A stretch of DNA of 62,357 nucleotides, the filler included, from an uncultured Methanosarcinales archaeon (lineage in GTDB: Archaea > Nanobdellota > Nanobdellia > Woesearchaeales > CAYZNE01), in assembly GCA_964405295.1 (NCBI GenBank). It is 4 parts of 4 records of this genome, joined end to end, with 100 filler letters (N's around TTAATTAATTAA, not from the genome) between each part and the next. Parts side by side here need not be neighbours in the genome. Positions count along the whole stretch, not along the records: positions 37,417 to 52,034 come from CAYONI010000013.1; 3 more parts are not named here. The stretch is one strand, 5' to 3'. How positions within the stretch are numbered: position 1 is the first letter of the stretch; each line of letters opens with the position of its first letter. The notes beneath the pieces were generated by a model that searched no databases, was not told the DNA's origin, and saw nothing but the letters and a program-made list of their open reading frames with translations. Below, piece after piece: positions 26,612 to 52,034 of this stretch. The translations under genes were made by a program, and so were the position numbers.

Positions 26612-26621
26612 AGGAAAAAAT

Positions 26622-27644: not shown

Positions 27645-28115
27645 TCAATCATATAAAACTTTTAATCTTCTTGTTTTAGGTAAAAAATTATAAAGTTTAT
27701 TCTTTCTTATTAAACCACACCCAAGAAAATCGTCTTTATACTTGAGAAGATAATAGCCATCAGAATCAACTGAGATATCAAAATCAAACCCCTTAAGCCA
27801 ATTCTCAGCTTGGGAATGATCTAACTCAAGAATATTTTTTGTTGCATATTTACCAATGAATTGGGACCCTTCTAAACTCAATCTTAGAGTTTCATCTTTA
27901 TTGATTGTCGCAAAATAAACTCCTACTTTTTCCAATCTAGGTATGTGAAATTTATCCTTTTTTTCTGTTCTTGTGGTAATAAATACCTTTTTCTTATTAT
28001 TTTTCACAAATATATATTTAGAAAACAATTTAGTATCTTCTAAACCGAACTGAGATTGTAACCTCTTAAGTAATATCTTAACTTTTTGTGGGTTTAGAAT
28101 GGTTAAAGACAGCAT
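27645..28115 (-). CDS. NIP7 / RsmF C-terminal PUA-like RNA-binding protein
   Basis: GVYFA...LRLSLEGSQ...WLKG...DFLGCG...NFLPKTRR pattern. Confidence 0.7.
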   Translation of the reverse strand: MLSLTILNPQKVKILLKRLQSQFGLEDTKLFSKYIFVKNNKKKVFITTRTEKKDKFHIPRLEKVGVYFATINKDETLRLSLEGSQFIGKYATKNILELDHSQAENWLKGFDFDISVDSDGYYLLKYKDDFLGCGLIRKNKLYNFLPKTRRLKVLYD

Positions 28116-28793: not shown

Positions 28794-28867
28794 AAGACTT
28801 ATTAATCTTAAAGCGTTTTTAAACCTTTTGAAAAGCAATTATGGAGTTTAAAAATAGACAAACGCCT

Positions 28868-31273
28868 TTATTCAACAGATAGGAACTTGGGCAACAGCAA
28901 AGATCGATATTTAATCGTATATTCACCTTTTTTATCAAGTTCTTCTAATGAATCTAAGCAAGAAATCTCATTTGGTTCAGGATAAGAAAATAAGCTTAAT
29001 TTAAGCTCAGTGGTATTATCATAAATATCAATAGGTCTAAAATAAACAGGTCTTGATGCATTAAAATCAAGTCCACCCCATGGTGCAGGAATTAAATCTA
29101 TTTGGTCAGGAGGATAGTATTTACAGTGTTTAACTGTGCAAGTTTCATACCATGCACACTTTTCACAAGCCCTATCACAATCTTCAGGTATTGAAACGCC
29201 CCTTTTATCTAAATAAGTTATATCTATTGCATATCTTCCAGGTATTAACTCAACCTCTTCTGTTTCATTACCTGTAATTTTAATAAAAACCTTATAATCA
29301 GGATTTATCTCATCATTAAGCAGCTCAAACTGGATTATTGCAGATTCATTCATAGTTAAATTAATTGATTCATTAGATATATCTGTTCCTTTAATTTTTA
29401 ATTTGCTTTTAACAACATCAAAGCACTCGCCTGAAAACAATAATAAATAATTTAAGCCGGGTATATAACATCTAGTGGGTATTCCAATATCATTATCAAT
29501 TTTATATAAATATTCAATCTCAAATTTCTGCAAAGAAACATTCTTTTTTACTTTTTTATATAATGCAACATTACCCAAATTAGTAATAGTATCTTGACGT
29601 GTAGTTAATTCAATCCTTTTTGTCTCGTAACCATCCTTCTCAAATAAAACATAACCATTATTGCAAATTGGCATTTTTGAACTAAGATAACCAGAACCAT
29701 ACTTTAATTCAGTCATTCCAATAAAGCACTCTGCATAAGTTCCACAACCATAACTAACTTCAACATTTTCTAATGCTTCACCAGTATTTCGATCACTAAC
29801 CATCATAGAAATATTACCGCTATTCATCTGAGATTCTTTACAAAAAATATTTCTTGAAGCTTGTTCACCAGGAATTAATGTTGAGTCTGCAGGTGGCGCA
29901 GAAGTGTCTGTGTTAATTATTTCTAGGTTAATTAAATTGTTATTCCAATTAACCGGGCCCATATCTAAAAGAAGTTCATTAATAACATAATTCTTTCTTA
30001 AATTTATTTCCATAGCAAAAACAAATTCTAATTCATTATTTTTATTTTCTCCATCATAATTTTTTAGTTCAACTGTAAGAGGATAACTTAAGTCATAAAA
30101 AAACTTGTATTGATTTTTGTACTCATTAGATAAAAGAAAATTGAGCTTACTAGCATCAAAAATAGATTGTCTAGGAAAAATTTTATCATCTGAACTTGGG
30201 AAAACATTAACATAGATTGGTTGATTAAAATATATAAAATTTGCTGAAACATCTGAATTATAATCTGAATTAGCATCAAATACAGGTAATATCCCTTGAA
30301 AATAAATTGTTTGCTCTAATAGTTCATTTTCAGGCATTTTATCTATAAAAGAATCATCAAAATTCTTTGTCCCTAAAACTTGAAGTACTCTAGAATAAGA
30401 ATAAATCAAACTTTGAATTTTTTGTTTAACTATACTTTTAGACCAACGCATTTGAAATCTTTCATTATCAGTGTAAAAAAATGGAGGAAGTAAATTCATA
30501 TTAGGGCCAGAATGCTGAGCAATTAAATGTTTAGAAAAAGAAGCCAAATGATTTGTTAAAGATTCATAAATAGTAATATTATAAGCTACATCATATAATT
30601 TTTTTAAAGGTAATTCTGAATCAACATAATAATCATTTATTCTTTGTTGAGCTCCATCTTTGGTTGCCTCAAGCTCATAAGTTAACAAAAAAGTCTGACC
30701 TTCATCATTAATTACTGTATCTACAGAAGGAGAACTCAGAATAGAAACTTCAAACCCAGTTTTTTCTAATTCACTAAATCCCTCTAAACATTTGCCTAAA
30801 TTATTCTCAACATACATAGAAAGTTGTAACTCCATGAATGAAACAGTAGGAATCCAACTACCAACACCACAAGTTTCGCATTCATTTGGGCCACTAAGAT
30901 AATACCAATAAGGAATTTTTACATTACTAGGAGGCGCTCCGAAATCAATTATATCAGATTCTGTAGGATTCATAGGATCATATTCAAAATCAAAATAAGA
31001 ATAGCTAGAATTTAATGGATCAATATATCCTCCATGAAGAGCTAATTCTCGTATTCCTTTTTCAGCAACTTGTTTCATACAAGATTCAACAAAGCCCCTT
31101 ATTGGTTTGAATTCTTCAGGCACAGATTCTAGATCTGCAGCACTAGGTCCTGTAACACCAGGAGTTATTTGAGAATTTATGTAAAAAAATATTCCTACTG
31201 CAATCAGAAGTACTAATCCAATTATTACAAAAATAGTAATTTGGCCTTTTTTGTTAATTCTGTTCCTCACCAT
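28868..31273 (-). CDS. Large secreted protein with class III (prepilin-like) signal peptide
   Basis: NKKG/QITIFVIIGLVLL N-terminus; Cys-rich, acidic extracellular body. Confidence 0.75.
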   Translation of the reverse strand: MVRNRINKKGQITIFVIIGLVLLIAVGIFFYINSQITPGVTGPSAADLESVPEEFKPIRGFVESCMKQVAEKGIRELALHGGYIDPLNSSYSYFDFEYDPMNPTESDIIDFGAPPSNVKIPYWYYLSGPNECETCGVGSWIPTVSFMELQLSMYVENNLGKCLEGFSELEKTGFEVSILSSPSVDTVINDEGQTFLLTYELEATKDGAQQRINDYYVDSELPLKKLYDVAYNITIYESLTNHLASFSKHLIAQHSGPNMNLLPPFFYTDNERFQMRWSKSIVKQKIQSLIYSYSRVLQVLGTKNFDDSFIDKMPENELLEQTIYFQGILPVFDANSDYNSDVSANFIYFNQPIYVNVFPSSDDKIFPRQSIFDASKLNFLLSNEYKNQYKFFYDLSYPLTVELKNYDGENKNNELEFVFAMEINLRKNYVINELLLDMGPVNWNNNLINLEIINTDTSAPPADSTLIPGEQASRNIFCKESQMNSGNISMMVSDRNTGEALENVEVSYGCGTYAECFIGMTELKYGSGYLSSKMPICNNGYVLFEKDGYETKRIELTTRQDTITNLGNVALYKKVKKNVSLQKFEIEYLYKIDNDIGIPTRCYIPGLNYLLLFSGECFDVVKSKLKIKGTDISNESINLTMNESAIIQFELLNDEINPDYKVFIKITGNETEEVELIPGRYAIDITYLDKRGVSIPEDCDRACEKCAWYETCTVKHCKYYPPDQIDLIPAPWGGLDFNASRPVYFRPIDIYDNTTELKLSLFSYPEPNEISCLDSLEELDKKGEYTIKYRSLLLPKFLSVE

Positions 31274-31281
31274 CTTTACTC

Positions 31282-32118
31282 TTATTGTTTTTTTAAATGT
31301 AAATGTTTTGCTAAAACCCTTGTTGAAATAAATAAATATCGTCTTAGAAAAACAAAAAGTAACACTGCAAAAATTATTTCTATAAAACCTAGTAAATAAT
31401 TAAACACGCTTAAGATAATTAAACTATTAATGTATGCTAAAACTCCTAGTATTATTAATCCGATAATTACAAACAACTTGACAAAAGGCATAAAATAAAT
31501 TGATTTCCTCATCAAGCCATAAAATTCTTTCCATGTTTTCTTAAAACCTCTATTTCTTAATGAACACAATCTCAATATTGGCATAAGCGCCCAATAAATT
31601 AGGAATAGAACAAGTAATATTATACCTATTGCTAAAGTTATGCCGAAAAACATTACTAGCAAAAAGTTTATTACTAAAAAACCAAGAAACAAAGGTAAAG
31701 TATTTCTTAAAGTTAATAAAACAGCCTGTAAATAATCTTTAAATCCCATATAATAAGATTTATCTAGCATTCTATACTGAATGGTTTTAATAAATGTTCC
31801 AAAGACATAAGATAATAAAAACATTCCAATTACTGAAATTATTACAACTGCAATTAAAACTTGTATACTATCAAGATAATTTTCTGCAATCTGAAGTTTA
31901 AAAGAATCCTCAAATGATCCGTCTTGTAATATTGTTGAATAATCTTGTTCATAAGTTTGGACTGATAACGCGAAATATTGGAAAGATGCTACAACTATTA
32001 ATAACATAAAAAAGAACATAAAGAAAGATAATAAATCTAATAAACCTGATTTAAGTATATATTTATTGAAAACAAATGTTTTCTTCAACATCTTTTTTTG
32101 AATCTCAAAATATCCCAT
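31282..32118 (-). CDS. Multi-pass membrane protein
   Basis: About six hydrophobic helices. Confidence 0.7.
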   Translation of the reverse strand: MGYFEIQKKMLKKTFVFNKYILKSGLLDLLSFFMFFFMLLIVVASFQYFALSVQTYEQDYSTILQDGSFEDSFKLQIAENYLDSIQVLIAVVIISVIGMFLLSYVFGTFIKTIQYRMLDKSYYMGFKDYLQAVLLTLRNTLPLFLGFLVINFLLVMFFGITLAIGIILLVLFLIYWALMPILRLCSLRNRGFKKTWKEFYGLMRKSIYFMPFVKLFVIIGLIILGVLAYINSLIILSVFNYLLGFIEIIFAVLLFVFLRRYLFISTRVLAKHLHLKKQ

Positions 32119-32765
32119 TATGGATTACCCTCATAAATTACACTTAAATCTTTATCTTTACCATCTAAACCTACACCTTGTATATCAAAAACATAAGTCT
32201 GTGAATCAATAATAAGCGCAACTTCATTATATTCCTCATCTGTATAATTCGTATAAAACCCTGATGTGCCTGTTAACACAGTAAATTCTAATTCTTCGTC
32301 ACCACCATTATTTAGAGGAATGGTATCACTGTCTGCTCTAATCTTATATTTGATAGTATCTTCTGTTTCCCCACCTTGAGGTATTCCTTGTATATACCAG
32401 CCAATTGTTAATAAATACTCCCTGTCCCCATTGATGTTAGTATATTGTGTTTCTCTTGCTTCTGGATTTAAAGCAATTGTTAAATCATAAATTCTATCAT
32501 CCAGAACTAAAGCACCCATAGTAATCTCATTTTCAAACTCAGTAGAAAAATCTTTGCTACAAATTTCTGTTTCCCAAGGTTCAACAGAGTACCAATCTAG
32601 TACACCTGGGTTCATATAACTTTCTATACCATCATCAAATACATTACCAAATAAATTTAATGCATTCTCATTTTGCCACCAACTTACAGCGTTAGCAGAA
32701 GAAGAAATTAGTAAAATAACTACTACAAACAAATACAGTTTTTTCACAATAATATTTTTTTTCAT
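32118..32765 (-). CDS. Secreted acidic hypothetical protein
   Basis: Sec signal peptide (KKLYLFVVVILLISSSANA); GGTGA RBS before the ATG at 32765. Confidence 0.7.
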   Translation of the reverse strand: MKKNIIVKKLYLFVVVILLISSSANAVSWWQNENALNLFGNVFDDGIESYMNPGVLDWYSVEPWETEICSKDFSTEFENEITMGALVLDDRIYDLTIALNPEARETQYTNINGDREYLLTIGWYIQGIPQGGETEDTIKYKIRADSDTIPLNNGGDEELEFTVLTGTSGFYTNYTDEEYNEVALIIDSQTYVFDIQGVGLDGKDKDLSVIYEGNP

Positions 32766-32766
32766 A

Positions 32767-35700
32767 TTAATCACCAAGGTCTATTCCTTCACAGGCATTA
32801 CCTAATTTTGCATTCATAGTGCCAAAATATTCTCCATCATAAAGACTTTGCTGTAAAGAAATAATTTCTTGTGCTTGTAAAGGAATTACCAAAGCTGCAC
32901 AAATCCATTGTCGCCACTTCTGTCCAACATAAGGAATTGGTATTAATGAATTATAATATTGACCGCAAGCACCTTGAAATGCAAATGAAACCCCTGTTCC
33001 TAAAAGTGCAGCTGCTGATGCTTTAATAAATTGGTCTCCCAATCCATGACCTTCATCAAAAGCATTTAAACGAACCTGGGCACTTTCAAGATACAAACAA
33101 TCCCTAAAACTATACAATTCCTCACAATATGAAGAATCAAGACCATTATTCTTAGAAATTTCTAAACATTTTATATGCATACATTTTAATTCTTTTTCTT
33201 TCTTTAAATTATAATAGGTAGCACCCAGACATAAACCATCATATTTAGTGCTTTTATAAGGATTTATTATCCACGTATCAAAATTAAACTTATCTGCTTT
33301 CATCACGTCTCTATTAGATTCTGATTCCATTGCAGGATCAAAATAATCATCCTTAAAAAAAGAATAATCACTTTTTAATATTTCTAAATCCCTGTTTGAT
33401 TGTAATGCAATCTCCAATCCTTCTAAATAATCATCAGCTACGCTTTCATGAAAAGCTGCTAATTCTAAATGATGATCTTTTACTAAACTATCCGGCCCCA
33501 AAATATTAACTGCTTCATCAGCAATTAGAATATTTGAAAGAGATAAATCTCTATTCTCAGCCCAAAGTTCAGTTAAACGATCAATTTCTTCCTCACTATA
33601 AACTGATTCTTCTAAAGAAACAATTCCAGTTTCATATTCCTTAATTTGTGCTTCAAATTCAGCCAGTTCAAGCTGAGAATTCACAAAAGTATTATCTCCA
33701 AACATTTTATCCTCAAGATATGCATCCCAATTTTTTTGTTCAGCAATAAAATTTGTTAGTTCTTGTGCATCATAAAATTTGCAATTGTAAATAAAACAGG
33801 CTGTCTTAACACCCATTCCTGTTGTAGGAGGGCTAATCCCTCTTATAATTGCAAGAATATTAGAATACATATTTCCTGCAGGCCAAAACCATTTTTCAAC
33901 GGAATCTAAAGTTTTTAGCCCTACAAAATTATGAAAACTTGCACTTGCTGGCTCAGTTAATGGAAAAATTGTAGCTAAAAGTTTTAATAAAATATCTACA
34001 CTTTGAATTACAGTATTAACAATTGCCATTGTTTTTCCAACATCACAAAGTGCGGACATTATACCATTCAAACTTTCTCTCCACTTAAGATCCTTATTCA
34101 AATCTTTTATATCATCTTTAAGTGTATCAATATTTGTATCTATTGTTTCATCAGGACCTGCAATATTTAAACCAAAAAAATCCATTGGTGCAGTAAAATT
34201 TACATATTGTTTTTTTAAGAAATAAGTATTTCCTATTCTTCCCTCAAATGCCATTGTGCAAACTAAATCTTTACTGTCTGTAACAATATCTTTTCCACCA
34301 ATCAGAACAGAAGCAGTTGCAAAATTACCATCTTTACTCAATAAAGACCAAGAATCACTATCACCATAAACATAATCATCACCAAGATCTTCATCATAGG
34401 CTTCACAATTAGTTATTTCATAATCAATTATTCCAACTTTGTTTGAAGTAGTAACAAATTCTAAAGGAATATAATGTTTCCAATGCTTAAATGAAGCAAC
34501 CCTCTTATCAATTTGAGAATTATAACCATCTCCAATATCAATACGACGAATTAATGTTGGAACTAACTCCATATCCATAGCACAAGTATCAATTAAGAAA
34601 GTATAGTTAGCATAATTGCCTGCTAAATCTTCAACACGAACATCAACTTCTTTATCTATTTCTTCTGTAGACAAAAAATTGCTTATATCAACTTCACAAT
34701 CAAATGCTCCACCATTTTTAACACAATCATTTCTATGAATTTGATCTATGGTTAAATTAGATGTTGCAGAAATTTTAAGTTCAGTGCTTAAATCATCTGA
34801 TGCACGCAATTTAACAGTTAAAGTGTCTTCTGAAGTTAAACAATAATCTTGCACTTCATCACCATTAACTAAAAGAATTTCAGAACCTTCAGCGATTATT
34901 GGTTCTTGCATATCAACAACAACTAAAGATTTATCTAAACCATTTAAACCTTTACCATAATCATCTGATGCACTATGATCAATATATAAGTATTTAGACG
35001 TTCCCGCATTTGCATCATCTACTTGCACAGTATATATGCATCTCCAATCTCCTAGTTCATTATCACAAGTAAATGGATTAGCAACATTATAGGCTGAAGT
35101 TAACTGAGATATTTTTATTGGAACATTCATTTGTTTAAAACTTGTATCTGCAGAACCTGCAATTATAGTGTACAAAATAGCATTTTTTCCAATAAAACAT
35201 TTCCCTTCCTCATCACAGTTTCTCTCTAGGTCAGGACCAATATGGGTAACATCATTTTCAGCATTAACAATTTCATATTCTCTTTCTATTGTTTCAACAG
35301 CAATATTATTTTGAGCATCTACTGCAGTTACTGTAAGAGAAATTAATTCATCTCCAGGATGAAGGTTTATACCTCTGAACATGCACCTGTAAAGATTTAT
35401 TTCAACATCAAATACACAATTTGCAAGCTTATTTTCATAACCCATATTTTGTATTGGAACATTATTAAAATCACTTAAGTCACCTATAACTTGCACAAGA
35501 TTTTCTTCATTGATTAGAATAACGACATCCACTATTGGAACTTGTGGATTATTAAGTGCAATCTTATCTAAAGAAATATCTCCCTGCATAATATCAAATG
35601 ATCCTAAAATTACCGGAGGATATGCATCCATTGTTAATTCTTCATCAGCAGGAACTTCTCTATTATTACCTACTTCATCTTGTGCTAAGATTGAAACTGC

Positions 35701-36276
35701 TACAACAGGTTCTGGACTTATAGGAAACATTAATGTGCCCATAGCAACACAATTGCCTGTGCCTGAATTAACAATTTCTGTGTGTTGTAAATAATTATTT
35801 ACAAATATCTTAAAATTATCAACCCCACTGCATTCAACCTCAGAACTTCCAGAAGAGTCTGTAACAATATACCCTATTGTTAATTGATTTCCATCTAAAG
35901 ACTGAGTAAAGGTTACATTAGGCGCATTTGAGTCTAAACCATATGTTAATGGAGGAGGTGTTACAAAAGATCCTCCTTGTTCTATTGCAATATCAACTGT
36001 TTTTTGTCCTGCTTCATATTGAGGTCCAAAGTAGCAATAACAAGAAGTGTTACCTTCATTGCATTCACAGGGGTATAGTTCTCCAGAAGAATTTACATAA
36101 ACCACCCCACCAGGTTGACTTATTTCTGCAGTAAACTCTTCACCTGCACCTACAAAATTATGAACATTTTCAGAACCATAAATAGAATAAGTATGTGCAA
36201 AAACAGGTGTTAAAGATACCATAAGAAATATCATAAATAATGCTAGAAACTTCTTATAAAATATTAACACACCCAT
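32767..36276 (-). CDS. Large secreted Cys-rich multidomain protein
   Basis: Signal peptide, repeated Ig-like motifs (A/V-x-D-x-x-G/N-N), paired Cys, C-terminal coiled coils and hydrophobic segments. Confidence 0.75.
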   Translation of the reverse strand: MGVLIFYKKFLALFMIFLMVSLTPVFAHTYSIYGSENVHNFVGAGEEFTAEISQPGGVVYVNSSGELYPCECNEGNTSCYCYFGPQYEAGQKTVDIAIEQGGSFVTPPPLTYGLDSNAPNVTFTQSLDGNQLTIGYIVTDSSGSSEVECSGVDNFKIFVNNYLQHTEIVNSGTGNCVAMGTLMFPISPEPVVAVSILAQDEVGNNREVPADEELTMDAYPPVILGSFDIMQGDISLDKIALNNPQVPIVDVVILINEENLVQVIGDLSDFNNVPIQNMGYENKLANCVFDVEINLYRCMFRGINLHPGDELISLTVTAVDAQNNIAVETIEREYEIVNAENDVTHIGPDLERNCDEEGKCFIGKNAILYTIIAGSADTSFKQMNVPIKISQLTSAYNVANPFTCDNELGDWRCIYTVQVDDANAGTSKYLYIDHSASDDYGKGLNGLDKSLVVVDMQEPIIAEGSEILLVNGDEVQDYCLTSEDTLTVKLRASDDLSTELKISATSNLTIDQIHRNDCVKNGGAFDCEVDISNFLSTEEIDKEVDVRVEDLAGNYANYTFLIDTCAMDMELVPTLIRRIDIGDGYNSQIDKRVASFKHWKHYIPLEFVTTSNKVGIIDYEITNCEAYDEDLGDDYVYGDSDSWSLLSKDGNFATASVLIGGKDIVTDSKDLVCTMAFEGRIGNTYFLKKQYVNFTAPMDFFGLNIAGPDETIDTNIDTLKDDIKDLNKDLKWRESLNGIMSALCDVGKTMAIVNTVIQSVDILLKLLATIFPLTEPASASFHNFVGLKTLDSVEKWFWPAGNMYSNILAIIRGISPPTTGMGVKTACFIYNCKFYDAQELTNFIAEQKNWDAYLEDKMFGDNTFVNSQLELAEFEAQIKEYETGIVSLEESVYSEEEIDRLTELWAENRDLSLSNILIADEAVNILGPDSLVKDHHLELAAFHESVADDYLEGLEIALQSNRDLEILKSDYSFFKDDYFDPAMESESNRDVMKADKFNFDTWIINPYKSTKYDGLCLGATYYNLKKEKELKCMHIKCLEISKNNGLDSSYCEELYSFRDCLYLESAQVRLNAFDEGHGLGDQFIKASAAALLGTGVSFAFQGACGQYYNSLIPIPYVGQKWRQWICAALVIPLQAQEIISLQQSLYDGEYFGTMNAKLGNACEGIDLGD

Positions 36277-37416: not shown

Positions 37417-40400
37417 TTATTAAGAATATTAAAATTATCCAGAAATTTTATTGGAAGATTCATTTTAATATCTCCATATCCTTCATAAGTATCTTCTTCA
37501 AACCAGGTAAGCTGTCTTTTTATTCTGTCTTTAATAGATTGTTTTGAAAATCTACCAATCAAGTTAGCACCCTTTATATCTCCCCTTCCAATCTCTTTAC
37601 CAAGAATCTTAGCTCCCTCTTCATAGTTAATTTCTTCTTGAGTTTTCATAACCTTAGGAAACCAGCCACGATAGTACTTCATTGCTTTATCAGGTGACTT
37701 ATCTGTATTCTCTAGATCAAGCCAGGTAAAATCTTTACCTTGCATCTCTGTAGCTTTCTCGTTTAGATATCCATCTTTCACAAACCATTGTTCCATCATA
37801 TCATTAAAGTAAGTAACAAAAGCTCGTTCATCTTTAGCAAGAGCCTTAAACTCTACATCATCTTCAATTAAAATTCTTTCCCGGGACCGGCCACCTATTT
37901 CAACTTCCTTAAAAAATTTACTGAAAAGCTCTGGATAGTTCACCATAGATACTCTATCAACACCTCCTCGTCTAATTCGAATCTTTCCCTTCATGTAACG
38001 ATCATAAATAGGTTTTAATAAAATTTCAAATTGTTTCAATTCACCCTCATGTCTCTGTGTATATTGATTCCATCTATTATTCCTTATCTTCACCCAGGTC
38101 TGGAACATATCCATGTTAACATCACTATAGTTACCAAGCCATCCGGTGAATACTCCTATCTCCTGTGCTTCAAATACATCTACCTGCAGGCTTGGATCTG
38201 CTCTCATAAGTGCAATATCTTCATAGAGTTTAGCAACCTTACGTTTAGTTTTTTCATCAAGTTCATCAATCCGTATCTTTCTTGACTCTTTAAATCGACT
38301 AAGAATAATAGTTAGTTCAGCTACTTTCCTACGATACATTTCTTCCGGATTAACATCTGAATCAATTAATTCTTTCTCAATTGTATCACTTGTTTTATAG
38401 GTATACTCAATAACATCAAATATTTTAGGACTCCTTTTAAGAATCTCTTTCATAATATTAGGATCGATACCGGCTTCAGTAAGAGCTTTCTTATCAGTAA
38501 GAAACTGATGAATCATATTAAGGTATGATCTAATCTCAACATGACGAGCTGGATCTTGTCTCTCGGCCAGCCATTGATCAGGCACCCAAAGGACCATTAG
38601 ATCACGAAACTTGATATCAGGATTATTAAGCTTAGTGATAAAGGCATAAAGCATTAACTGAAGTTTTGCTCTCTCTCTTTGATTATCAGTAATATAAACT
38701 TCTTGCTCACCATATTTCATAGCATCACTTGACATTCTTTTACCAAAATTAAGACCTGTTTTATAATCGATAAAGGTCCAGGTATTATCTGCATGTCCAA
38801 TAGCTGCATCAATAGTACCACCAAAACCAAGCAATTCACTCCATACAGATATCTCTGGTAGATATTCTACATCCCTGAGTATCTCCGGCACATCATCATT
38901 GAGAATCGATATCCCTGCATTGTTAAAGATTTTTTGTAGTGTACCTTCGCTTTCTATCCAGGCAAAGTTTTCAGGATCTACCTCTCCATTGGAGTTACTA
39001 GCAAGATCATTAATCTTTTTATCTATCTCAGCATTGGTTAAACCAAGATCAAATTTCCTGTTTGCAACCTTCATAAATAAAAGGTGCATAATCTTACCTT
39101 TAATCTCTCCATACTTCATTTGAGCATCCATACGTTCCCGGAATTGATCATATGTTTCCATATTACCCTCATCAGTTTCCAACTCATGATCATGAGGAAG
39201 CTCTTTCCACCATGTATCAGCCATATGTTGACCAAAGGAAATATTAGGATCAATCTTTTTATTACCAAAGAATGCTATAAATCCACCTATCCTGTCTGTG
39301 ATCCTACGGATTTTATCAGCTGTCTTTTTTATGATGTAGTAGTTCGCTTCAGTACCATCTTCATTCTCTCCTACAACAATCTCTTTTGATCTGGCTTTCA
39401 TACTTTCAGCCATAGCTTTAACGGCTTTACGAAGATCACTCTCAACAGGAGCTTCTGTTTCTTCTACTTCTTCTTCAATAGTATCAGTTTCTTCAAGTGC
39501 TTCTCCTTTTTGAGTCCAAATAGTACCACTACTATCCATGTATGTATTCTTACCAGTACGTACAAAATTGGAAGTATAACCAAGGTCCTTAATAAGATTA
39601 ATAAAATATTGTTGTACATCAACACGATCTTTGATACCAAAGTATTCTAGGATCCTATCAATAATTCTTCTCAGTAAACTCTTTTCAGATACTTCACTTA
39701 CAAAATCATCAATGGCTTCTGCAAAAGTGCCATTAGCAAGTATCTCAGAAAGAAATTCCTTTTCATTTTTAAGTCCGTAGATATCATCAATTTTAATAGG
39801 ATATCCTTTTTCTGCCATGATACGCTCAAGAGCTTCCGCATGTTGAAGACTCTTAGGCCTCAGGCTTCCATCAGTGAACTTATCAAAGTATTCATGTATG
39901 ATATTGTCAACTGAAGATCTAAACTCAGGATTTGTCTCATAAGCAATTACTGTGATACCATGACTTAACTCATGCATTACAGCACGATCTACAGCTTCAA
40001 CTGACTCCAATCCTTTCTCTCTAATAATTTTTGCAAGATCAACTTCAATAGTACCATCCAAATGATATAAACCATAATCTCTTCCTGATAGGGTATTATA
40101 TTGAAGTTTCAGCTTTTGTTTAACGATCTTAGCTTTTAACTCACGTATTGAATTTCTTGTCTTTGAACTCTTTGTCCGGGATAAAATAGAATTAAGTGTT
40201 GACTCAACATTCTTTTCCCTGGTATAAAGCTCAGTTACATCAGAAGTAAATGTGCCATTTTCAACTGCTTGCTTAGTTTCTTTTTCGGTAAGTTTAGAAG
40301 CAGATATTTTTTTCACCTGAGCCGGTGTCATATTAGATACAAGCACATCTGATCCAACTATCTCTTTAATTTTCCTATAAGATTTATCTATTCTTGTGAT

Positions 40401-43400
40401 GTCATGATAATAGGTGTAGCTAATAATATCTCCTACCTTAAGATCAGTACCATTATATGTAAAGGAGGGCCTTTTCATATCAGAAACCATTACATTATAT
40501 ATTGGCTTACTGAATGTCTTATCGATACCAAAATAATCTTCCATTGAATAACCCTCATTCTTAACCTGGTCAGAAAAGTTGTAGAAAGCAAAAGGTGATA
40601 CATTTTGTATCCTCTGGTAATGAACCTCTGGAGCATTAGACTCATTCATTCTCACAAATACTGTTTTCCTTTTCTCAAACTTAGTCATAAGGAACCGTGG
40701 AAACTCTCTACTCTCCTCTGTATTGGCATATGCTCTGTCATAGAAATATGATTCTGTCATACCGCCATAGAAGTTTCTTTTCTGATTATTCTGATCAAAA
40801 TATTCTCCTTTGGACTCTGGATTTTTATATTTTCTAAAGGCCTCTTCAAGGATATAACCGTAGTTTACTACAAACTGAAGCGAGAAATCATCTTCAATAA
40901 AATCCCAAAATGAATTTGAATCTGCAGATATGAACGGATCCATTGTCTTATTAAAAGCATTATCTACTTCCTGATACATATCATTAGGAAGTATAGAGCT
41001 ATAATTTGTTGCCCCAAACTTCAATCCCCAATTCATTATACCAAAGCTGACAAACTCTTTTTGAAAATCTGTATAGTCATTATCCTCCCTGGGAATGTCA
41101 TTGTATTTAACCGTGATAGCACTGGTCTTATCGTTCCTGGTTACGTCATACTTATTCAGATCATAAAATGCAGTCTTAAAGGTTAGATAATCCTCAGCAT
41201 CAAGGTTGGTTCCTCCATCGAAACGAAGCTGCCATGATCTTGAGATAGGACTAAAGATAGCATTCAAGTGGTTAATAAACTTATTCTCAATTTGATTACC
41301 ATCACTATCCTCTTGCTGATTGATGAATTCTTTAACCTTCCGGATCTTATTTATGAAGATCTGATTAACAGCCTTCGGACCGGTAAGGGTTCTCATTTCT
41401 CCCTCTTTATCAATATAGGTATGAGTAACAGCTTTATCTACTGCATAGGTTCCGGAATAAATCTCATTAGCCAATAGATAAGTAATAATTTCATTCTGGA
41501 TAATCTTTTTTCCTTCATCACTCAATAGATTTATACTACCCATCATAGAATATACCTTATCTACATGGTGCATAAACCTTGGATTATGTTTCTTGAAGTT
41601 AGTTTCAATATATCCCTGTAAATTTATAAGTTGCTTGTGTATCTCAAGGATATGTACATTATTCTTAAAGAAATTTTGAACATCGAAAAGATAACTGGAT
41701 GCATCAAAAGTTGTGAGCTCACCATCAGCTTGCATATCTCCAAAAATAGTCTTCGCTGTTGATATAGCATTATCTATTTCAAATTTGTTGTAAGGTATAG
41801 CTCTTACAATCTTCAGCCACTTAGCTAACTTGGCTATTTCCTCTCCAATATCTGTTGCCTTCTGAAAATGCTCAATAACTTTTAGTTGATAAAGCAGGTC
41901 ATTGTATTCCTTACGCTTGATGTTTCCTTTCTCATCATAGGCATCAGGCATCTCAGATATACTACGAACTGTTTTACCCATGTTCGTTTTAAGATTATTC
42001 TCAGTAATTTTTATCTCAGCAATATCTATGTCAGAGATATTAAGCTTCTGGAAAATACTCTTCCTTACAGAGCTTATAACTGAAGTCAATTGCCTGTCAA
42101 AGTGATTTGATATATCAAGAATAGCAGGCTGTTGCATTATATTATTGGTAACACCAAGAGGGACCCCTATAGCCCTAAAACCATTAAAAGAACTAATAGT
42201 ATTTTGTGTAATGTTAAGAACATGAAGAGCCATTACCCGTATATTATCAATAGCAACATTAATAAATCCATCATTTGAGGTAAAAAGATTTACACCTTCT
42301 CTATCATATAAACTAATACCATCATATAACTCATCTCCTATCCGTATCATCCTGGCTTCATCACGTATCTTAGGAGCTTTATTGCCTTCCCCGGAATTGA
42401 TCAAATATGCCAGGCCTTTACCATTGTTACCAAAGATTCCGGTAGCAGCATCAGCACCAAATATAATATCATGTGCTCTTACCTTATCATTTGCATTGGA
42501 AAGATCCAGTGCTTGCGTTTGGTGAGTAAGCTTTGCTACTCTATTTTTCTCTTCCTTAATATCATTCATAGGAATAGGAGAAATCATCTCAGGTACATTC
42601 TTTGGTGCAGAAAGAACATTGATAAGATCTTCAAATACACCATTTTTAAGATATTCGATTTGCTTTTGTGTATTCTCAAATTCCCAACCAGGTCGATAAG
42701 TCCATTGTTTTTTAACCTTCTTATAACCAAGAGGAATACCTCCAGCTTCTTTATCAACATATCGTTTGATAATAAATAGGGAGTCAACATCAAAGTCAGA
42801 ACCATGTAAGGCAACTAATAAATCCGGAGCAATAATAACATTGGTATCTTCTGTTGAATAGAATCCAACAACCTTTACTACAACACCACTATGGATGTCT
42901 GAGGATGGTATACGAAACCCAAGAAGATCTGGTGTAGAGTAATAATCATATGCATCTTTTTCTTTGGCGATAGCATCCTCAATCTCTGCTTCATATTCTT
43001 TAGGTAGTATACCTCTTGGAAGAATCATCTCTGCAACAAGACGATTTTTTTCATCACGGAAGTATTTGAGTTTATAATTTCTTCCGGTACCTATTTCCTT
43101 ACCATATTTTCTTACACCAGCTTCTGTCTGAAGAACAAGCTTAGTACCACTAAAAGGTATCTTAGCAATTCTACTATTTAATGAACTGGCAATCTGTATT
43201 ATAATCTTGTCTGATATACTTGGAAAGTTATGACTGATTCCCTGGCTAATAGCATCATAAGCCATCTCTGACCCCTTACCTGTAAGCATACCAAGAATGG
43301 TACTCTTAAAAGATCTATCAAGCTTATTCATTAAATCATTACCACCAAGACGGGCAATCTCTGCTAATTTTTTATAAGCTTGTGACGCTTTCTCTTGATT

Positions 43401-46400
43401 TTGTTCAAGAACATTGATCAAGTATATAAGCTGTGAGGGTTGAGATACTGTACTCTCGATCTCACTCTTTGGATCCAGCTGTATACGATAGTCTTTATTC
43501 CAAACCTCAAAGCCCATGTTATCTTCAATAGTCATACCCGGACGGGCAATATCAGGATAGGATGCGGTAGCTTCTGGCATGCCTATCTTAACAGCACTGG
43601 CAAATACAGCTTCATCATAGCCATTGTTTCTTAAATTCTCTCTCAGGTATCCCAGGCTTGGGAATTCCTTGACTAATTCATTTGTAAGAACAATCGATGA
43701 AAGCTTTACTCCACGAACAACATTGTCATCTGATACACTATATATTACCGGCTTCAATACTTTATGGATAGAATAGTCTGCAGTATAACCACCATACTTA
43801 AGGTCCTCAAACCTCTCAGGAGTCATGAATCCTTGAGCATCTGTAGAGGCAAAATTATCTTTGAATTTATCCTTCAATGCTGGAAGCTTGGCTTTCTCCT
43901 CCGGTGTAATAAGAAGCTCATTAAGACTTTCCTCAATATCATCAAGGGTCTTATTACTATCACCCATGATAAGGATCTTTGTCTTAGGCTTTATTCCAAT
44001 AGTATTATGAACTACTCCACGACTACCAGGACCAGAAGCAAGGGAATACCTACGAAGGATATCCTCTTCATTTAAGTACTGATTCATATCAGAAAGAACC
44101 AGTTGATTCAGGAAAAAGGAATTTACATAATCATTTTTGACATATAGATTCACAAGAGGAAGGATCATCTCTTTTGTAATAGCATATTCTCCTTTTATTT
44201 TACTTGCAAGAACACCTTTATTTTTACGAGTAGAGTTATTGATTTCATTTAGATCATACCCTTTAAATTCATAGAGATATTTATTCATACCCTTGATGCT
44301 GCTTAAATTAGTATCAATGGTTACTTGGTTATCAATAATAAGATCAGCATACTTATCAGCTTCACGATCAAGCAATGAAAGAACAACCTTACTATATTTA
44401 TTAATCTCAGAAGAGCTTAGTGCCTTCTCCCAAATAGAATTAGAACGGCCTTTGAGTGCTTCCTCAACAAGTCTTAGATTGATAAACTTATTTGAATTAA
44501 TATTACCTTTCTTTTGCTTCTTAGCAAGATCATTGAGTTGAGTAATAGCACTTACAACACCTGATTCAATCTGTGCTGGATTAAGTAATGATACTTCAGC
44601 AGCTATAGCCTGAGCCCTCTCGTTTGGATAGAACCACTGGAAATACTTCTTCTGTGTTTCATTACCATACTTTAGCCGGTCAATAAATCCTGCACCAAAT
44701 ACACGCATTAAGAGATCTTGTTTCTTCTCATTCTTATACGGTATATATTGTACCGTATCATCATTCTTTATCTTTCTGAGACCATCATTGGCTATAATTC
44801 TATGAATCTTATTCTTACTATCAAGGAAAATGTTATGTTTATAATAGTCTGACTGCAGGTATTTTGGTAATTCATTCTGCAGTTTCTTAGTAGTCCTGTT
44901 TTCCTGTATCAGATAATTTAATACATCACTCATAAAAGAAGAAGGTGACCAAAGGTATCTCTTCTTACCATCCATAGTCTTAACATTGGTAGCACGTACA
45001 AACTGATCTCCACTGGCAACTATCTTACCAAGAAAACTAATCATAGATTTATCATTGGAGACAAAGTATGCCATATCTTTTTTAATAGTCTCATTATCAA
45101 TTGTAGTCTCTTGTCCCCAATCTCTTAATGCTCTCTCAAAGAAACCCGGGATATCATTATATAGTTTTTCAATTCCAATATCAGGTAATGATGAAGCCTC
45201 AGACTTAAGACCAAGCTCCATAAGAAACTGTTGTACAAAGGTGTAATTTGAATTTCTGTTTGCCCTATATATAGGTGTAAGGATATCATCAACAAATCGT
45301 TTTAGATCCTTTTTAGTTTGAAATTTATCTCTTATCCTATCCTGGATCTCAGAAACTATAGATGTATGAATACCATATGATGATCCCGGAATATATGTGA
45401 TCTTATAAGCACCAGCTGAATCCCACTTGCTTTCAGCGATAAAGAAGTTCTTCTCCTGCTGGTTGTTAAGAAGATTTAAGATAGCTTTAAACTGATTCTT
45501 ATTCTGTAGGTATGTAAATTGTCCGATAAGCTGGTCTAACTTAATATCTGTAGCATTTGAAATCCTGTTAAGATAAGCTGCAGTATTCTCATTCTTATTT
45601 CTTGTTATCACATCAAAACCAAGCACCTTGGCTTTGTTAGGTCCATTAATCTCCTCATTCATATCAATCTTGCCATGAACAAATACATCCTCGTTGGTAA
45701 ACTTCATCTTTCGGGAAAGCTTACGAGAATTCTTATCAAGTGGTGAAGTGGCCTTATTGTATAATGATTTAAACTCATTAGCAATAACCTTTATCCGTGG
45801 ATGTCCACCAAGCTGTTCTACTTTCTGATCTATCTGATGATCAAATTTTGACTGATCAATCCTAAGTCCTTCAAGTAGCTGAAGCATTCTTACATATGCT
45901 TCTCTCCATGGCATGTATGCTTGTTTACCAATTTTTACATTAGAAAGAAAGTCCTTTACAAGACCACTAAGTTTACTTTCCTGGTTCCATTGGTCTGACT
46001 CAAGAATATTCTTTGCAAGATTCTCAGATGTCATCTCCTGTAGCTCCTTCATCTGATCCTCAACAGAGAGTTCTTCTTTCACTACAATATCCTGAGCTTT
46101 ATTCATCTGCCAGTTCTCATAGATATTATTCCAGATACCACTATAATTATTTGTTGTAGCATCTAAATATCTAAGATCATTCTTATAAAGGAAGTAATCA
46201 CTTTCACTAAGCTCCTCTTCTTTTGAATCGTGCTTCGCTAATATGTTCTTGGTAAGACTTCTTTCATCTTCAATATCATTTAATACTGCACTGTATATTT
46301 CTCTACGTGTCATTGGATACTTAATATTATCCTGGTATCCTTCGATTGTTTTACCATTGGTGATAATATCATTTACCTTTTCAAGTATGATATCCTTACC

Positions 46401-49400
46401 TGCAGTATATAGATCAAGAGCAACATGGAATGATTCGGTGCCAAACATACTCATGATGGCATTCATTGGTTTACTGATACCATGTACACTATTTCTATTC
46501 TTACGATAGTATCCACTCTCTATAGTACCAAAGAATCGCTCTATGTTATTGGTATTAAGATTACCAAAATACTTCATGATCCTGGAAAGAAAGTTGTAGA
46601 AATTCATCAAGATTTTATTTAATCCCTTGATTGGCTTCTGTTCATTACGGTGCCAGGATATAGCCATCAGCTCTTCGATCTCTTCCGGAGACTTATTCTT
46701 ATGTTCCGGATTCTGCTTTCTAAAAGCATTATCAACATTAACTCTTTCCTTTTCACTGAGTCCCTCCCAAAAGATCTTATGAAAAGCTTCGTGTCTGATT
46801 GGATTCTCAAAGGTCTGACCATCCTCACTCATCACATAGATAGCTTCATCTCTGTATACTCCAAAGGAAGATTCTCCAGCGATACTATCAACTGTAGCTT
46901 TTCTAACAAAACGTATAACATCCTCATTCTCTGTAGTTGTTAAAGGAATATACTTCTGTGCAATCTTTAAAGCCTCTTCGTTTGTTATTGGACGACCAAG
47001 TTCTTGTGGATGTGGTGACATCCTACGATTACGCTTATTGGCTCTTCTTTTTGCCTGATCTGCAAGCAACCTTTCTGCCTCCGTCTTCCCTTTCTTAACA
47101 ACTGTACCTACTTTTTTTATCAGTTTAGTTTTAGGAGCTGCAGGAATCTTCTCCTGATATGCTTCATTGATATCTACCTGTATTCTGGTTCTGTTTATAC
47201 TCTCAAGCTTGGTACCTAAGACAGCTTCCAGTTCATCTATATGAGAATCAATATCCTCACCACGATTGTTTATAAAGTCAATCTTCAGTGGGAGATAGTA
47301 ATTATTATTATTCCCGGCATTATCGAAGTTTAATATTTCATCAAGCTGTTCGATAGTAATAGGTTTCTTCTCAAACTCATCCCTTAATTCTTTGAACTTG
47401 TTAGCACTTATACCCTCAACATCTGCTCCTATGCTTTTAAATTCAAGAAGCTTCTGCTCCAGGGCCTCGATGTTCTCTTCGGAAGCAATGGACTTATCAG
47501 ATACCTTCCATGTGCTTGCTTTGATATCAGTATTTTCAAATCCTAATCTCTTAGCCTCTGCCATTACCTGATCATGTAGATTAATCAAGTGTTCATAATA
47601 CTGACCGAAGGTAGTCTCACTGGCAAGTAAAGACTTAGATGTGGTAAGATAATTATTGGATCTCTTGTTATCAGCAAAGATGGTATTGGCTGTACGTATA
47701 GCAAATGAAGCCTTCGTGTTGGCTTTGCTAAGTATATTCATTGCAATCTGTGCATCACCCTTACCGGCTACAAGATCTGGCTTGGTAATATATGATGCCT
47801 TATCAGGATTACGGGTACTCCTACCAAGGATAGTCCCCATCTCTGAATTCTTACTTTTCTTAAACTCATAGGTAACTGACGGATCTACCTTCTGTGCTTT
47901 GGAGAGATATTCATTCATTCCTTTCTCTCCCTCAACTTCAATAGGTGTTTCTCCTACTCCATAAAATCCCGGAATAAGAACCTTTGCCTGTTCTTCGAGT
48001 ATATCAAATTGCTCTTGTGTTAATTTAGGAAGACCAAAGGAAGGATTCTCTTCAGTATGTTCTTTAAATGTATATCCTTTCTCGGCTCTTGGCTCAACAC
48101 TTTCATCAACAACAGTATAGTTACGTTTGAATCTCTTGATTAAAGTATTTACACCAGGATCTCCTATACTTCCAATTCCATTTACTCTTAATTCATTAGC
48201 TGCATTTCTCCAAGGAGCTATCAGTGCCGGGAATTTATCGTTCTTCTTTATTGATCTTCCAGTAAGACTTACAAACTGGTCTTCACCTTTTCTGTGGATA
48301 AGAAGATAAGGTACACCGGCTCTGAGAGCATTATCCCTGTGGGTATATATCTTAATCGAGAACTTCAGGTCTTCACCTTTGAATACTCTGCTGATCTCAT
48401 TCTGTAGTTGTGTTATAAATCCACTACCTTTTTTTACAATATTATCTTTATTATAAACATATGATAATGGCTGTGATTTACGAACAGTACCTTCTGAAAG
48501 TATCGTTGGTCCCTCTGCAAGAAGTAATTCACCCTCATTCACCCGGGAAAGTCCATTGTATAACTTAGGATCTACCTCACTAAAGGCGTTGTTAAGCCTT
48601 CTACCGAACTTTGTTAGCAGAAGCTCATCTTGTGTCATGATGCCAATAATAGCCCACTGTGGCGTAGCTAATGAGCTACCATTGTCATTTGTGAGCTCTC
48701 CCACTACCTGAATCTGATCCTGCTGGCTATCTTTATTGTATGCCTTAATGAATTTAACAGCAGATCCTTTCTTAACAATAGGGCCTCCCTCTCGTTTACC
48801 TGGCTTTATAGGGTGATATGATGCAGCTTGTAACTCCACGGTATTAGCTGGTGAAAGATCCTCTTCGTTTGCCCAGGTACCGCCATCTGAAGGTACATTC
48901 TCTGAACTTAATGGATCTCTTTCTCCCGGGGTTCTATTTGTCTGTTCTTCAGCAATCTCTTTCTCCTCCTCTGTAGTAATCTGAAATATTTGTGGAGCAT
49001 CAAAGTCTACATTTTCCATCTCATCACCCAAGACTTCAGCTTCAAATGATAAACGATCTGCATAGGTAGCGGCTATTTCCAGGTTACGTTTTTCAAAATC
49101 TTCAACTACTATCTCGTCTACACTATAATCCCACACTCCCTCTTCCTTATATGAACGTACCATTAAGTATTGTATACCACGGGAAAGAGAAGTATACATA
49201 GCACTATTAAATCTCCTTGTATTTGTAAAGTCATTAGGATCCAGATCAACATAAACTTCATCATACTCAAGGCCGGCAACATCATAATATTGCATAGTCT
49301 CCACAACTTCGATATCTACATTCATATCTTGAAGTGCTTTCTCATATACCCGTACTTGTGCCTTATTACTTACTACAATAACACGACTTCTTTCATTAGC

Positions 49401-52034
49401 TTTCTCATGTACCTTAAGCTGTTGTATGATATCATCAATACGTTTTGTCACATGAACACCTTCAGCTGGCTTACCAATCTTGTCTGTAGCAATTCCCTGC
49501 ATAGCTTTAATCTCTCCCGGGAAGTCCTGAAAGATATTCTGTGTACGATTGATCGATGCATTACCAGAACGGAATACACTGGTCAATGGACTAATCTCTT
49601 TGATAGCAGGAATACTCCCTACCAGTGAGTTTATAGCAGCATCCTCTTCATCTTTGGATGTAACCTGTGTTGGATCACCAAGAGCAAATAGACGAAGAAC
49701 TTCCCTGGTTGTTTTATTATCCTTATTTGATTTCTTGATTATCTTATTCGCTTCTACGATTTTATCAGCCAATACATCCAATTCTTCCTTAGACATACGA
49801 GCAACCTCATCAAGGATAACTATCTGATTCTCTTCTCTTAAAAGATGTTCAAGAGTAATGTCATTTGCAAGACCTGTGTTCTTGACTCCTTTTAAACTTG
49901 CCTGAAGAATCCCCAATGCTTTTTTATGAGTACTAAGTGCTGTAACATTATCTGGAGTAAGGCCCAGCAACTCAGGAAGGTGAGAACTAATCAATCTTGT
50001 TTTACCGGTACCGGCTAATCCCTTGATATAATACCAAAGGGAATATCGTTGATCTTCATTCTTAGTCTTACGCTTCACATTGAAAAGCAATTCACGTAAT
50101 GCTATTAACTGCTGGCTACTTGGAGCATGGCGATCCTTACTCCTAAGTAGATGACTCTCCCTACCTATAATACTTGTAATATCTTCTTGGCTCTCTACCC
50201 TATCACGCAGATTGATATTTGCCAGTACATCGATATGTGCTTTCAGAAGTCCGTCAAGAGCTTCAGTAGTAATACCTTTATACTTTAGATCAACACCCTT
50301 TTGAGTAGCATCATATAATGCATACACATCTTTATCACGAAGGAACTTATCAATAACATTACTCTCCTGGATACCAGATTCAAATCTATTGACAAGATCT
50401 TTAATAAGCTGGTCAAATGTCTTAAATGGATTAACAGCATATGAAGCCAAAATAATATAGTACCCCTTATTTTTATCTTCTTTTACCGAAGGAAGATCTT
50501 CATATACTCTTTCAAACTCCTCGACTAATCCTTTTCTTTCGTCTTCAACACGGGCAAGTAATCTGGCTCTACCTTCCTTAGTCTTCTTTACTTCATGAAG
50601 GATCCTCTCAACAAAAATACCATCAAAGGTATAGTCCACTCCCTCTCTACGTGCTTTGCTAGCTTTCTTGAGAATGTCATTAAGGAAATCTTTACCAACA
50701 GCATCTTCTATAATATTGTATATAGATTCATTGACTATCTTAAAGGAATTATCCTGGATATCTACCTTCAAACCAATAGATGTAAACAAGCTCTTACTAT
50801 AATTTACCATGCTCTTACGATCAGCACTCTTTCTGTCAGCTGCATTCTTCTCAACATCTTTCTGTATAGCCTTTAGATCCTTGATAGCTTCATCAACACT
50901 ATCGATATATCCCTTAAACTCATTTGTTCTGAGCATCATCTTTCTCCCGGGAGTACCATATACTGTCTTCCTATTCTGTAATGCAGAGATAAGCTCTTGC
51001 ACAAATGTATCATCATCATATGCCTTAGGGTTGGTGTTATATACATCAATCGTATTCCTGGCCGTTACAATTGGTTGGTCAGCAAACTCCCTCTGAAACT
51101 TACGATATGACTTCTTATAATTACTTGGAAGAGAACGATCTGTTTTCTTTGATAGCTCATTAAGATTCTTAATCTCCTCGAGAGCTTTATTAAGGTCAGA
51201 TGTTCTTGCATTGTAGTTCTCCAGCCATGCCTGGTCCCTGTAATATTTCTTCTGATCAAAGTTTTCATTAGGAACTTCTGTTGGAGTAGGCATACCCATC
51301 TTATCCTCTATAAATTCCGTAGTAGTTGGAGTGTTAGTATTCATATCCTCTTCCCGGGATTCTTTTTCACGCTCAAGGCCGGAGAGACTTTTCTCCCTGG
51401 CATCGATCATGTTCTGGATCCTGTTAACTTCACCTTCAGTTACAATACCACCATCGCTTATTGCCGATAGTGCAGTTTCAATAACACCACTAATAGGAGT
51501 CTTTCCTTTACGAGCATCTGCAATACCTTTATTGATCGCAGCTTTCTTGGAGAACTGTTTCCCAATATTTAAGAAGTGGCTATACCTGGTACCAAATTCA
51601 TTTGCCATTGCTGACGGTCCGAACCCGGATTGATTGGCTACATTACCCTCAAGATATTCAAATAAGAATCGTGTGGAGAATGGATTTTGTGTGCCATTAA
51701 GAGCTTTAAATTCCTGAACATCATACATTGCTCTCAGGTAATCATCTCTCTTTTTAATGGTCTCATCTTTATTGACCTGATCCATTTTCTTCAAAGCATC
51801 ATTGTATGTATCAATCTCCTGATTGAATTCATTATAAAGCCTCTCCCGGGTAGATTTATTTTTGATCTGCTTTTCAGTATTCAAACTATCCTTAATCAGA
51901 TTATCAATATTCTCTTTCTCCTGATCACTAATATTATCATTAGACTTCAGCTTCTCCAGAAGACCACGCTTAATCTTTTCGAGATATAAAGTTTTCCCAA
52001 GAACAATCTTAAATAATTTACTCTTATCATCTTC
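37417..52034 (-). CDS. Giant phage polyprotein (partial at both ends): SF1 helicase, zincin, crAss-like virion RNA polymerase, zincin, RecB-like nuclease
   Basis: Frame open across the whole contig, including upstream of the track start at 51884. Motifs: GLAGTGKT, ILDE, GDPTQ, YTSLSRG; HEAFH; TDAQG, SAVKIG, RIPSS, GSDFDVD; HELSH; GTID...IDYKTG...QLMLY. Confidence 0.85.

Follow-up and report, generated by a model that had tools for sequence, protein, structure and literature searches.

A predicted giant RNA polymerase chain of an uncultured crAss-like phage joining homologues of phi14:2 gp67, gp66 and gp65

Phage phi14:2 carries in its virion an RNA polymerase (RNAP), gp66, that enters the host with the DNA and transcribes the early genes; the enzyme has a preference for DNA that is single-stranded or denatured, and it inhibits itself (phi14:2 gp66 paper). 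Its gene lies in a trio, g067-g066-g065 (GenBank gp078-gp077-gp076; 1,797, 2,180 and 1,421 residues; Steigviridae), and gp66 is PDB entry 6VR4. Here we describe a related locus in 62,357 nucleotides of DNA, hereafter the window, from the archaeal assembly GCA_964405295.1, where the contig at positions 37417-52034 (14,618 bp between N spacers; contig C13 of genome G000) consists of a single open frame. We consider it likely that this frame encodes part of a giant protein of a crAss-like phage, in which homologues of gp67, gp66 and gp65 are joined in one RNAP cargo chain.

In phage crAss001 the proteins gp47, gp50 and gp49 were identified as virion cargo by mass spectrometry, and must partly unfold to pass a tail with constrictions of under 50 Å (PMC10172136). 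Fusion within such blocks has been reported. Drobysheva et al., citing Yutin et al. 2018, refer to crAss-like phages with a 'single huge polyprotein' in which, as in our chain, the three RNAP-block proteins are fused together with a zincin, and which is likely cleaved; Yutin 2021 (PMC7886860) describes transcription proteins of giant size, a PDDEXK domain being present in some of them. Fused giants, the triple fusion among them, are already on record, and the undescribed element of the present chain is a compact motor placed N-terminal to the polymerase. Our literature search found no paper describing a helicase ahead of a crAss RNAP, a weak negative with Yutin 2018 and others outside its coverage. 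The activation of the crAss virion RNAP, the opening of duplex DNA and the roles of gp65 and gp67 are stated in the literature as open.

Two other systems invite comparison. The Suoliviridae phages cr118_1 (YP_010110531, 4,946 residues) and cr50_1 (YP_010110216, 4,774 residues) resemble our chain in having a zincin (HEAFH) followed by the RNAP, with a superfamily 1 (SF1) helicase in the same protein. Their helicase, however, is longer and C-terminal to the RNAP, and the next cargo gene is separate, whereas ours is compact and N-terminal, so that the two were probably acquired independently. The virion RNAP of N4 and polyvalent proteins (PMC5512222; PMC13434306) offer the same design of a giant ejected RNAP chain with an HExxH zincin and accessory enzymes, but the N4 polymerase is of T7 type and unrelated to the two-barrel enzyme, making this an analogy of design and not a matter of membership.

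Domain organisation of the giant chain

The minus frame read from position 52034 contains no stop in 4,872 codons, whereas the other five frames contain 179-777 each. The first-pass annotation had noted this stop-free frame over the whole 14.6-kb contig and had expected the real protein to be longer still, an expectation borne out by relatives of ~6,000 residues and by a frame that is open at both ends. The ten closest homologues, two of which are N-terminally partial, align along the whole chain or most of it at ~33-47% identity, and the closest full-length homologues have 5,978-6,385 residues, with a predicted mass of 687 kDa for relative P0003. Measured against these lengths, ~600 residues are absent at the start of the fragment and ~550 at its end; from such alignments the frame is likely an internal part of a gene encoding ~6,000 residues. 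Strain differences are distributed as expected of a real gene in the minus frame: among 40 listed of 217, 32 are at third codon positions, and 30 of the 37 affected codons are synonymous.

Each of the 30 bins of the stretch is covered, at a depth of ~6-12, by contigs from two public runs that carry the label marine metagenome, and one of these two best-covering runs may be the source sample of the contig; two salt-lake runs cover 28 and 13 of the 30 bins. The ends of C13 are passed by 2-3 public contigs in each main run. RNA datasets are absent from the runs listed as containing the contig. That separate genes were joined by chimeric assembly, an account left room by the fact that none of the public contigs reaches from one end of the stretch to the other, has next to no probability: the unbroken frame is collinear with single full-length proteins from independent sources, and both junction regions are bridged by public contigs (X1 records 1 and 3; X2 records 10 and 13). 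The existence of such collinear homologues already refutes it.

Table 1. Predicted features of the contig and of one neighbouring contig, in window coordinates
Feature	Residues	Window position	Strand	Basis or detail
Single open frame	1-4872	37419..52034	-	no cysteine; fragment of 558 kDa (4,872 codons) with both ends open
Part of gp67-like module	1-620	50175..52034	-	gp67 match lies in the N-terminus of relatives that is missing here
Compact superfamily 1B (SF1B) helicase-type motor	~628-975	49110..50153	-	motifs, profile, model
Motor motifs	Q642 (Q motif); Walker A GLAGTGKT 672-679; Walker B DE 742-743; GDPTQ; R822; R952 (motif VI)	49998-50021 (Walker A)	-	
Region X, conserved, mixed alpha/beta, ~560 residues	~1060-1620	47175..48857	-	confident model
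Zincin 1, putative	HEAFH 1748-1752 (46779-46793), E1788	46455..47027	-	junction of gp67-like and RNAP modules
Two-barrel virion RNAP core	2400-3450	41685..44837	-	profile and model
TDAQG motif of RNAP core	2731-2735	43830-43844	-	sequence
Catalytic GSDFDVD of RNAP core	3078-3084 (D3080, D3082, D3084)	42783-42803	-	sequence
Zincin 2, putative	HELSH 4021-4025 (39960-39974), E4093	39645..40112	-	start of gp65-like module
Predicted PD-(D/E)XK nuclease, RecB/Cas4 type	H4317, E4394, D4409, D4423-Y-K4425, Q4459xxxY4463	38595..39137	-	
Start of gp65/gp49-like C-terminal region	4560-4872	37419..38357	-	profile and relatives
Archaeal replication cluster, contig C9		2288-15505		Orc1, PolD small and large subunits, Hef nuclease, DnaG

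The central part of the chain is identified, by profile and by predicted structure, as a crAss virion RNAP of the gp66 type. A profile of the core family gave one strong match among PDB sequences, phi14:2 gp66 (6VR4, E 6.8e-57). The AlphaFold2 (AF2) model of the core (predicted local distance difference test (pLDDT) score 85.8, predicted template modelling (pTM) score 0.83) has 6VR4 as its top Foldseek match (E 4.3e-28, TMq 0.69), with QDE-1 and RDR2 next, and structural alignment with 6VR4 gives Z 20.9 and an rmsd (root-mean-square deviation) of 3.8 for 923 aligned residues, covering gp66 574-2160 at 16% identity. Both double-psi beta-barrels, the connector and the downstream elements are present in one chain in the model, and the DFDVD region (3080-3084) does model as a two-barrel active site. 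Its Val in fourth place fits the gp66-type rule of Ile or Val there, and the three catalytic Asp residues are invariant in all 46 rows of an alignment of residues 2400-3450. The first-pass annotation, which had named a crAss-like virion RNAP from a handful of motifs, is thus upheld: LKPV, KLSS, SAVKIG and RIPSS are all found in the frame, and TDAQG and GSDFDVD lie exactly where it had placed them.

A search with residues 2600-3400 returned 58 homologues of 2,886-7,277 residues among 1,259 scored candidates, and an exhaustive search for the core gave 391 clusters at E<=0.001. The top matches of the core model in BFVD are crAss-like proteins, and the phages matched by tblastn, in the 40 listed of 65 records, are all crAss-like or unnamed gut or mouse-tissue phages. 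A profile was needed to reach gp66, since the single RNAP sequence missed 6VR4 among PDB sequences. A search with the whole protein brought only the helicase above the cut-off in Pfam, and nothing in PHROGs or PDB sequences. Enzymes of the gp66 type have a self-inhibitory domain that blocks the cleft; the profile of residues 1860-2400 here did not match gp66.

Profiles of successive regions match gp67 (E 5e-78), gp66 (3e-60) and gp65 (3e-24 for the second zincin and 6e-24 for the C-terminus) in turn, which identifies the chain, by sequence comparison, as the phi14:2 gp67-gp66-gp65 trio fused in one protein. The outermost matches come from the parts missing here: the ~600 upstream residues of full-length relatives (N0 profile) match phi14:2 gp67, the RefSeq name g067 being confirmed, as well as crAss001 gp47, and the missing C-terminus, profiled from the homologue pool, matches phi14:2 gp65 and crAss001 gp49. 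In relatives this C-terminus adds ~550 residues and ends in a hydrophobic segment. Among the giant open reading frames (ORFs) of three related genomes, gp67, gp65 and crAss001 gp50 are matched in all three and gp66 in two. The resulting order is a gp67-like start, SF1B motor, region X, zincin 1, two-barrel RNAP, zincin 2, PD-(D/E)XK nuclease and gp65-like end. Helicase-, nuclease- and protease-type domains had been proposed in the first-pass annotation, which gave no coordinates for them, to share one chain with the RNAP; all can be recognised, with conserved catalytic residues.

Compared with phi14:2, the chain has the same order, the same RNAP fold, a DFDxD motif with Val or Ile in fourth place and the same position after the muzzle and cargo-position genes; the gp67 N-terminus and the gp65 zincin and C-terminus are homologous, and the orthologues that flank gp66 are here within the chain. 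Unlike phi14:2, however, it is one chain, and the SF1B motor, the zincin before the RNAP and the PD-(D/E)XK domain were not detected in the phi14:2 trio. In terms of crAss001 (PMC10172136), the N0 region and zincin 1 correspond with gp47, the core with gp50 and the C-terminal region with gp49, whereas the three crAss001 genes are separate, two of them are inverted, and no motor or nuclease was detected.

The two putative zincins occupy distinctive positions. Zincin 1 has its homologue in the zincin at the C-terminus of crAss001 gp47 (prob 96%), its H, E, H and E residues are kept in 27 of 27 aligned sequences, and in the model strands precede the HExxH helix. Zincin 2 is homologous to the zincin of phi14:2 gp65 (prob 98%), with HExxH in nine of the ten rows that cover the site. 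Where the gene is naturally split in relatives, the breaks lie immediately ahead of zincin 1 and immediately ahead of either zincin 2 or the nuclease. In locus L015 (6756-7550 and 7538-14497) tandem zincins are found across a gene boundary, one ending the gp67-like gene and the other starting the RNAP gene. The predicted nuclease carries the residue set E, D, D/E-x-K and QxxxY, each member of which is kept in 19-21 of 21 rows; PF12705 is matched by 15 of the 21 relatives, and the window's own piece has no match at E 0.01.

The motor contains motifs Q, I, II, III, IV, V and VI and two RecA domains, and eight motif residues are conserved throughout the 31 aligned loci (one of the eight as T or S), at ~25% identity. 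The best structural matches of its model are Dda, DSH9 and SLFN11 (Z 21-23), the superposition on Dda giving Z 23.0 and rmsd 3.3 for 284 aligned residues (model 2-333, Dda 1-439). Dda carries a 1B pin and 2B accessory domains, which have a role in duplex unwinding. The motor is ~100 residues shorter than Dda, and its model is a continuous bare two-RecA core with no 1B or 2B insertion seen. It is best described, from motifs and model, as an SF1-type motor and not as Dda proper. No tblastn match to the helicase region was found in described phages. In relative P0005 an intein of ~283 residues lies inside the Walker A motif of the motor (residues ~1249-1531; L002 ~3990-4840), and the terminase of the same phage (L056:14767-18000, 1,078 residues) likewise has a long insertion.

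Region X has many blocks modelled at pLDDT 80-95 and conserved GVPYL and AQxAxNxLAxAN motifs. It gave no PDB sequence match, no usable Atlas match and no match to gp67. Fold searches were made with a model holding both the motor and region X and were filled by motor-domain matches, and the lack of matches for region X is not evidence of a new fold. A guess that gp67 equals N0, N1 and X without the motor is unsupported.

Relatives, genome context and frequency of fusion

When viral contigs were scanned from a profile seed, 51 loci emerged, at least three being duplicates, and three of the records were taken whole; searching viral contigs with the single sequence of either protein end had found no relatives. 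The core identity of the three records to the query is 35%, 31% and 47%. Crassvirales are marked by a TerL-portal-gene77-MCP-gene75/74 structural block together with ring and muzzle tail genes, and all three records contain homologues of terminase, portal, capsid, tail-ring and muzzle proteins in the phi14:2 order. In the two records that include this flank, the giant gene comes after the muzzle gene and a pair of mid-sized genes, of which one in G003 matches the crAss001 cargo protein gp45. The capsid protein of the closest record is 37% identical to that of phi14:2 (E 3e-88), and the giant gene makes up 19-22% of the related records. The search for terminase, portal and capsid genes that the first-pass annotation had proposed therefore succeeded in three relatives, but not on the one-gene contig itself. 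Pfam Terminase_6N was matched in none of five related virus records, a failure of sensitivity, since PHROGs and phi14:2 comparisons did find the terminase. The contig itself is probably part of an uncultured crAss-like phage.

Cysteine is rare in the fusions: 0 in the 4,872 residues of the fragment, and 47 in 201,397 residues (0.023%) over 32 full fusions, compared with 1.0-1.15% in the other ORFs of the three related genomes. Described cargo proteins are similarly poor. An absence of cysteine is known as a mark of ejected proteins for N4. A search of the N4 paper PMC13434306 found no passage to that effect.

The retrieved set of 189 homologues contains many fragments and is biased to the query's kin. 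Full fusions, in which a single chain holds a gp67-like start, the core and a gp65-like end, account for 32 of the 189, and each of these 32 has both the motor and the nuclease; the motor precedes the core in 106 of the 107 homologues with more than 2,400 residues upstream of the core. Among the 51 loci, 15 are free of stops from the motor to the C-terminal block, 17 have their one split between RNAP and gp65-like gene, and three are split at both junctions; the remainder are split at the first junction, cut by an end or interrupted by TGA or a frameshift. The contig is an incomplete example of a recurring architecture. As to whether the domain order is already common among described Crassvirales, a point raised in the first-pass annotation, it is common in metagenomes, but none of the 15 described phages with the block that we compared has the full order or an N-terminal motor, partial fusions being common among them.

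In a quick, midpoint-rooted tree of the RNAP core, 46 environmental rows form a cluster separate from 11 described phages (SH-aLRT 100), the environmental rows being biased through their recruitment by similarity to the query. The tree does not include references that lack a G/A-x-DFDxD match or have the motif split, and the cr116_1 reference coding sequence, which is cut by the locus end, was left out of comparisons. Fused and split forms alternate on the tree (L024 fused and L038 split; L049 and L051; L014 and L025), and the doubly split P0055/L045 is nested among others. This interleaving, the occurrence of nearly every partial fusion in described phages, and the effectors that polyvalent virion proteins commonly carry (Iyer 2017, PMC5512222) are what would be expected if the fusion were functionally neutral, three translationally adjacent cargo genes fusing and splitting again and again, and the motor and nuclease were passenger effectors carried in on the cargo, for counter-defence or attack on host DNA, unrelated to transcription. 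We regard this as rather unlikely, because the motor is not sporadic: its near-universal presence in the long homologues points to a fixed role in the lineage rather than to a swappable effector. A neutral fusion would nonetheless be compatible with the identification of the chain made above.

Several of the split or interrupted loci show further peculiarities. In-frame TGA codons occur in the giant gene of L010, L013, L026, L033 and L047; several align with Trp columns in L013 and L026, which suggests recoding of TGA as Trp in those two, and with varied residues in L033 and L047. In L007 (16678-18205) the C-terminal block of the giant gene is spread over three frames, through frameshifts or assembly errors. 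The closest related phage, G001, encodes a UDP-glucose dehydrogenase, a methyltransferase, a radical SAM protein and glycosyltransferases (L056:12314-18536 to L057:158-5217), with one more glycosyltransferase at L055:18097 to L056:475, which suggests glycosylation of DNA or capsid.

Possible action of the chain in the host

Homology, gene position and the lack of cysteine suggest that the chain is very probably packed in the capsid and ejected, partly unfolded, through the tail. After refolding in the host its polymerase would, by analogy with gp66, very probably serve to transcribe the early phage genes. A chain of ~6,000 residues, if ejected, would be an extreme case of protein passage through a constricted tail. 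The motor is in all likelihood an active ATPase, and the nuclease, judged from its residues, probably acts on DNA, either that of the host or the ends of the phage genome.

The two zincins flank the RNAP, and may cleave the chain close to or at the two natural boundaries between genes, thereby releasing or activating a self-inhibited polymerase. Their location at both junctions suits such self-processing. For the motor we suggest, more tentatively, that it tracks on the incoming DNA and helps to supply or hold the single-stranded template that the polymerase prefers, a role with a parallel in the QDE-1/QDE-3 polymerase-helicase pair (Drobysheva et al.); genome reeling or an effector role compete with it.

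Several observations weigh against this picture or parts of it. Zincins are kept where the genes are separate (phi14:2 gp65, crAss001 gp47, cr4_1, cr273_1), so that they are not there only for cutting a fusion, and the N4 virion RNAP has an HExxH domain yet is packaged unprocessed; these two facts leave cleavage evenly balanced in our estimate. Both phi14:2 and crAss001 are without a motor in the block, and in five split loci (L014, L026, L040, L044, L045) it is the upstream gp67-like gene, and not the RNAP, that keeps the motor, which together indicate that the polymerase does not need the motor in cis. The motor's lack of the extra domains of Dda weakens a role in duplex unwinding. The predicted nuclease is weak on its own sequence (E 0.22). 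The fragment lacks the two ends of the gene, and the remainder of the phage genome is likewise missing.

The same observations bear on a different account, in which the chain works uncut like the N4 virion RNAP: tethered to the membrane, with zincins that are structural or act on the host envelope, and with the motor and RNAP pulling the genome in. The unprocessed N4 enzyme is proposed to be membrane-anchored (PMC5512222; PMC13434306), full-length relatives of our chain have a hydrophobic segment at their end, zincins are also retained by unfused forms, and the motor travels with the gp67-like module and resembles a bare two-RecA translocase. On the other hand, the zincins lie at both of the junctions that correspond to gene boundaries in other phages, the ligand and catalytic residues of zincin 1 are strictly kept, Drobysheva et al. 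consider the polyprotein likely cleaved, and in the literature covered a DNA-uptake role is shown for no crAss cargo protein. We think an uncut chain of this sort improbable, though by no means far-fetched, and retain the ejected RNAP chain, with or without processing by its zincins, as the preferred reading.

Beyond this, we offer as a speculation, and a doubtful one, that a large aquatic crAss-like lineage carries a pared-down SF1B motor in its gp67-like module and often ejects the whole block as a ~690-kDa cysteine-free chain cut by its two flanking zincins, the motor being the missing factor for duplex transcription by an RNAi-polymerase-like enzyme with a preference for single strands, comparable to QDE-1/QDE-3, or for genome reeling. 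The lineage offers handles for such questions in its two intact zincins at the junctions, its natural split points and its widely shared motor.

Origin of the contig and its neighbours

C13 is likely a phage fragment mis-binned with an archaeal genome. The bin is archaeal, with Orc1, both PolD subunits, Hef and archaeal DnaG encoded on neighbouring contigs. The GC content of C13 is 0.362, against ~0.30, and its tetranucleotide distance is 0.41, against 0.09-0.11 for the five largest contigs of the bin. Its position in an archaeal bin could be taken to mean that it derives from a virus or provirus of that archaeon, but we consider this very improbable and already largely refuted. Besides its outlying composition, C13 shares its ends with no other contig of the bin and has no spacer-like match of at least 23 nt to the rest of the bin; none of the others among the 98 bin contigs matches the ORFs of the three related phage genomes, leaving no other phage contig in the bin; and the capsid proteins of relatives match Bacteroidota phages. 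By analogy with described crAss-like phages, the host is likely a Bacteroidota bacterium.

Other small contigs of the bin (C20, C23, C26, C38, C54, C83, C90 and others) have GC contents of 0.42-0.52 and far-off tetranucleotide profiles, indicating that the bin holds contaminants besides C13. Elsewhere in the window, positions 22266-36276 on the neighbouring archaeal contig hold several large ORFs (801 and 1,169 residues) without an NCBIfam match, and a FlaI/TadA-type ATPase with adjacent genes.

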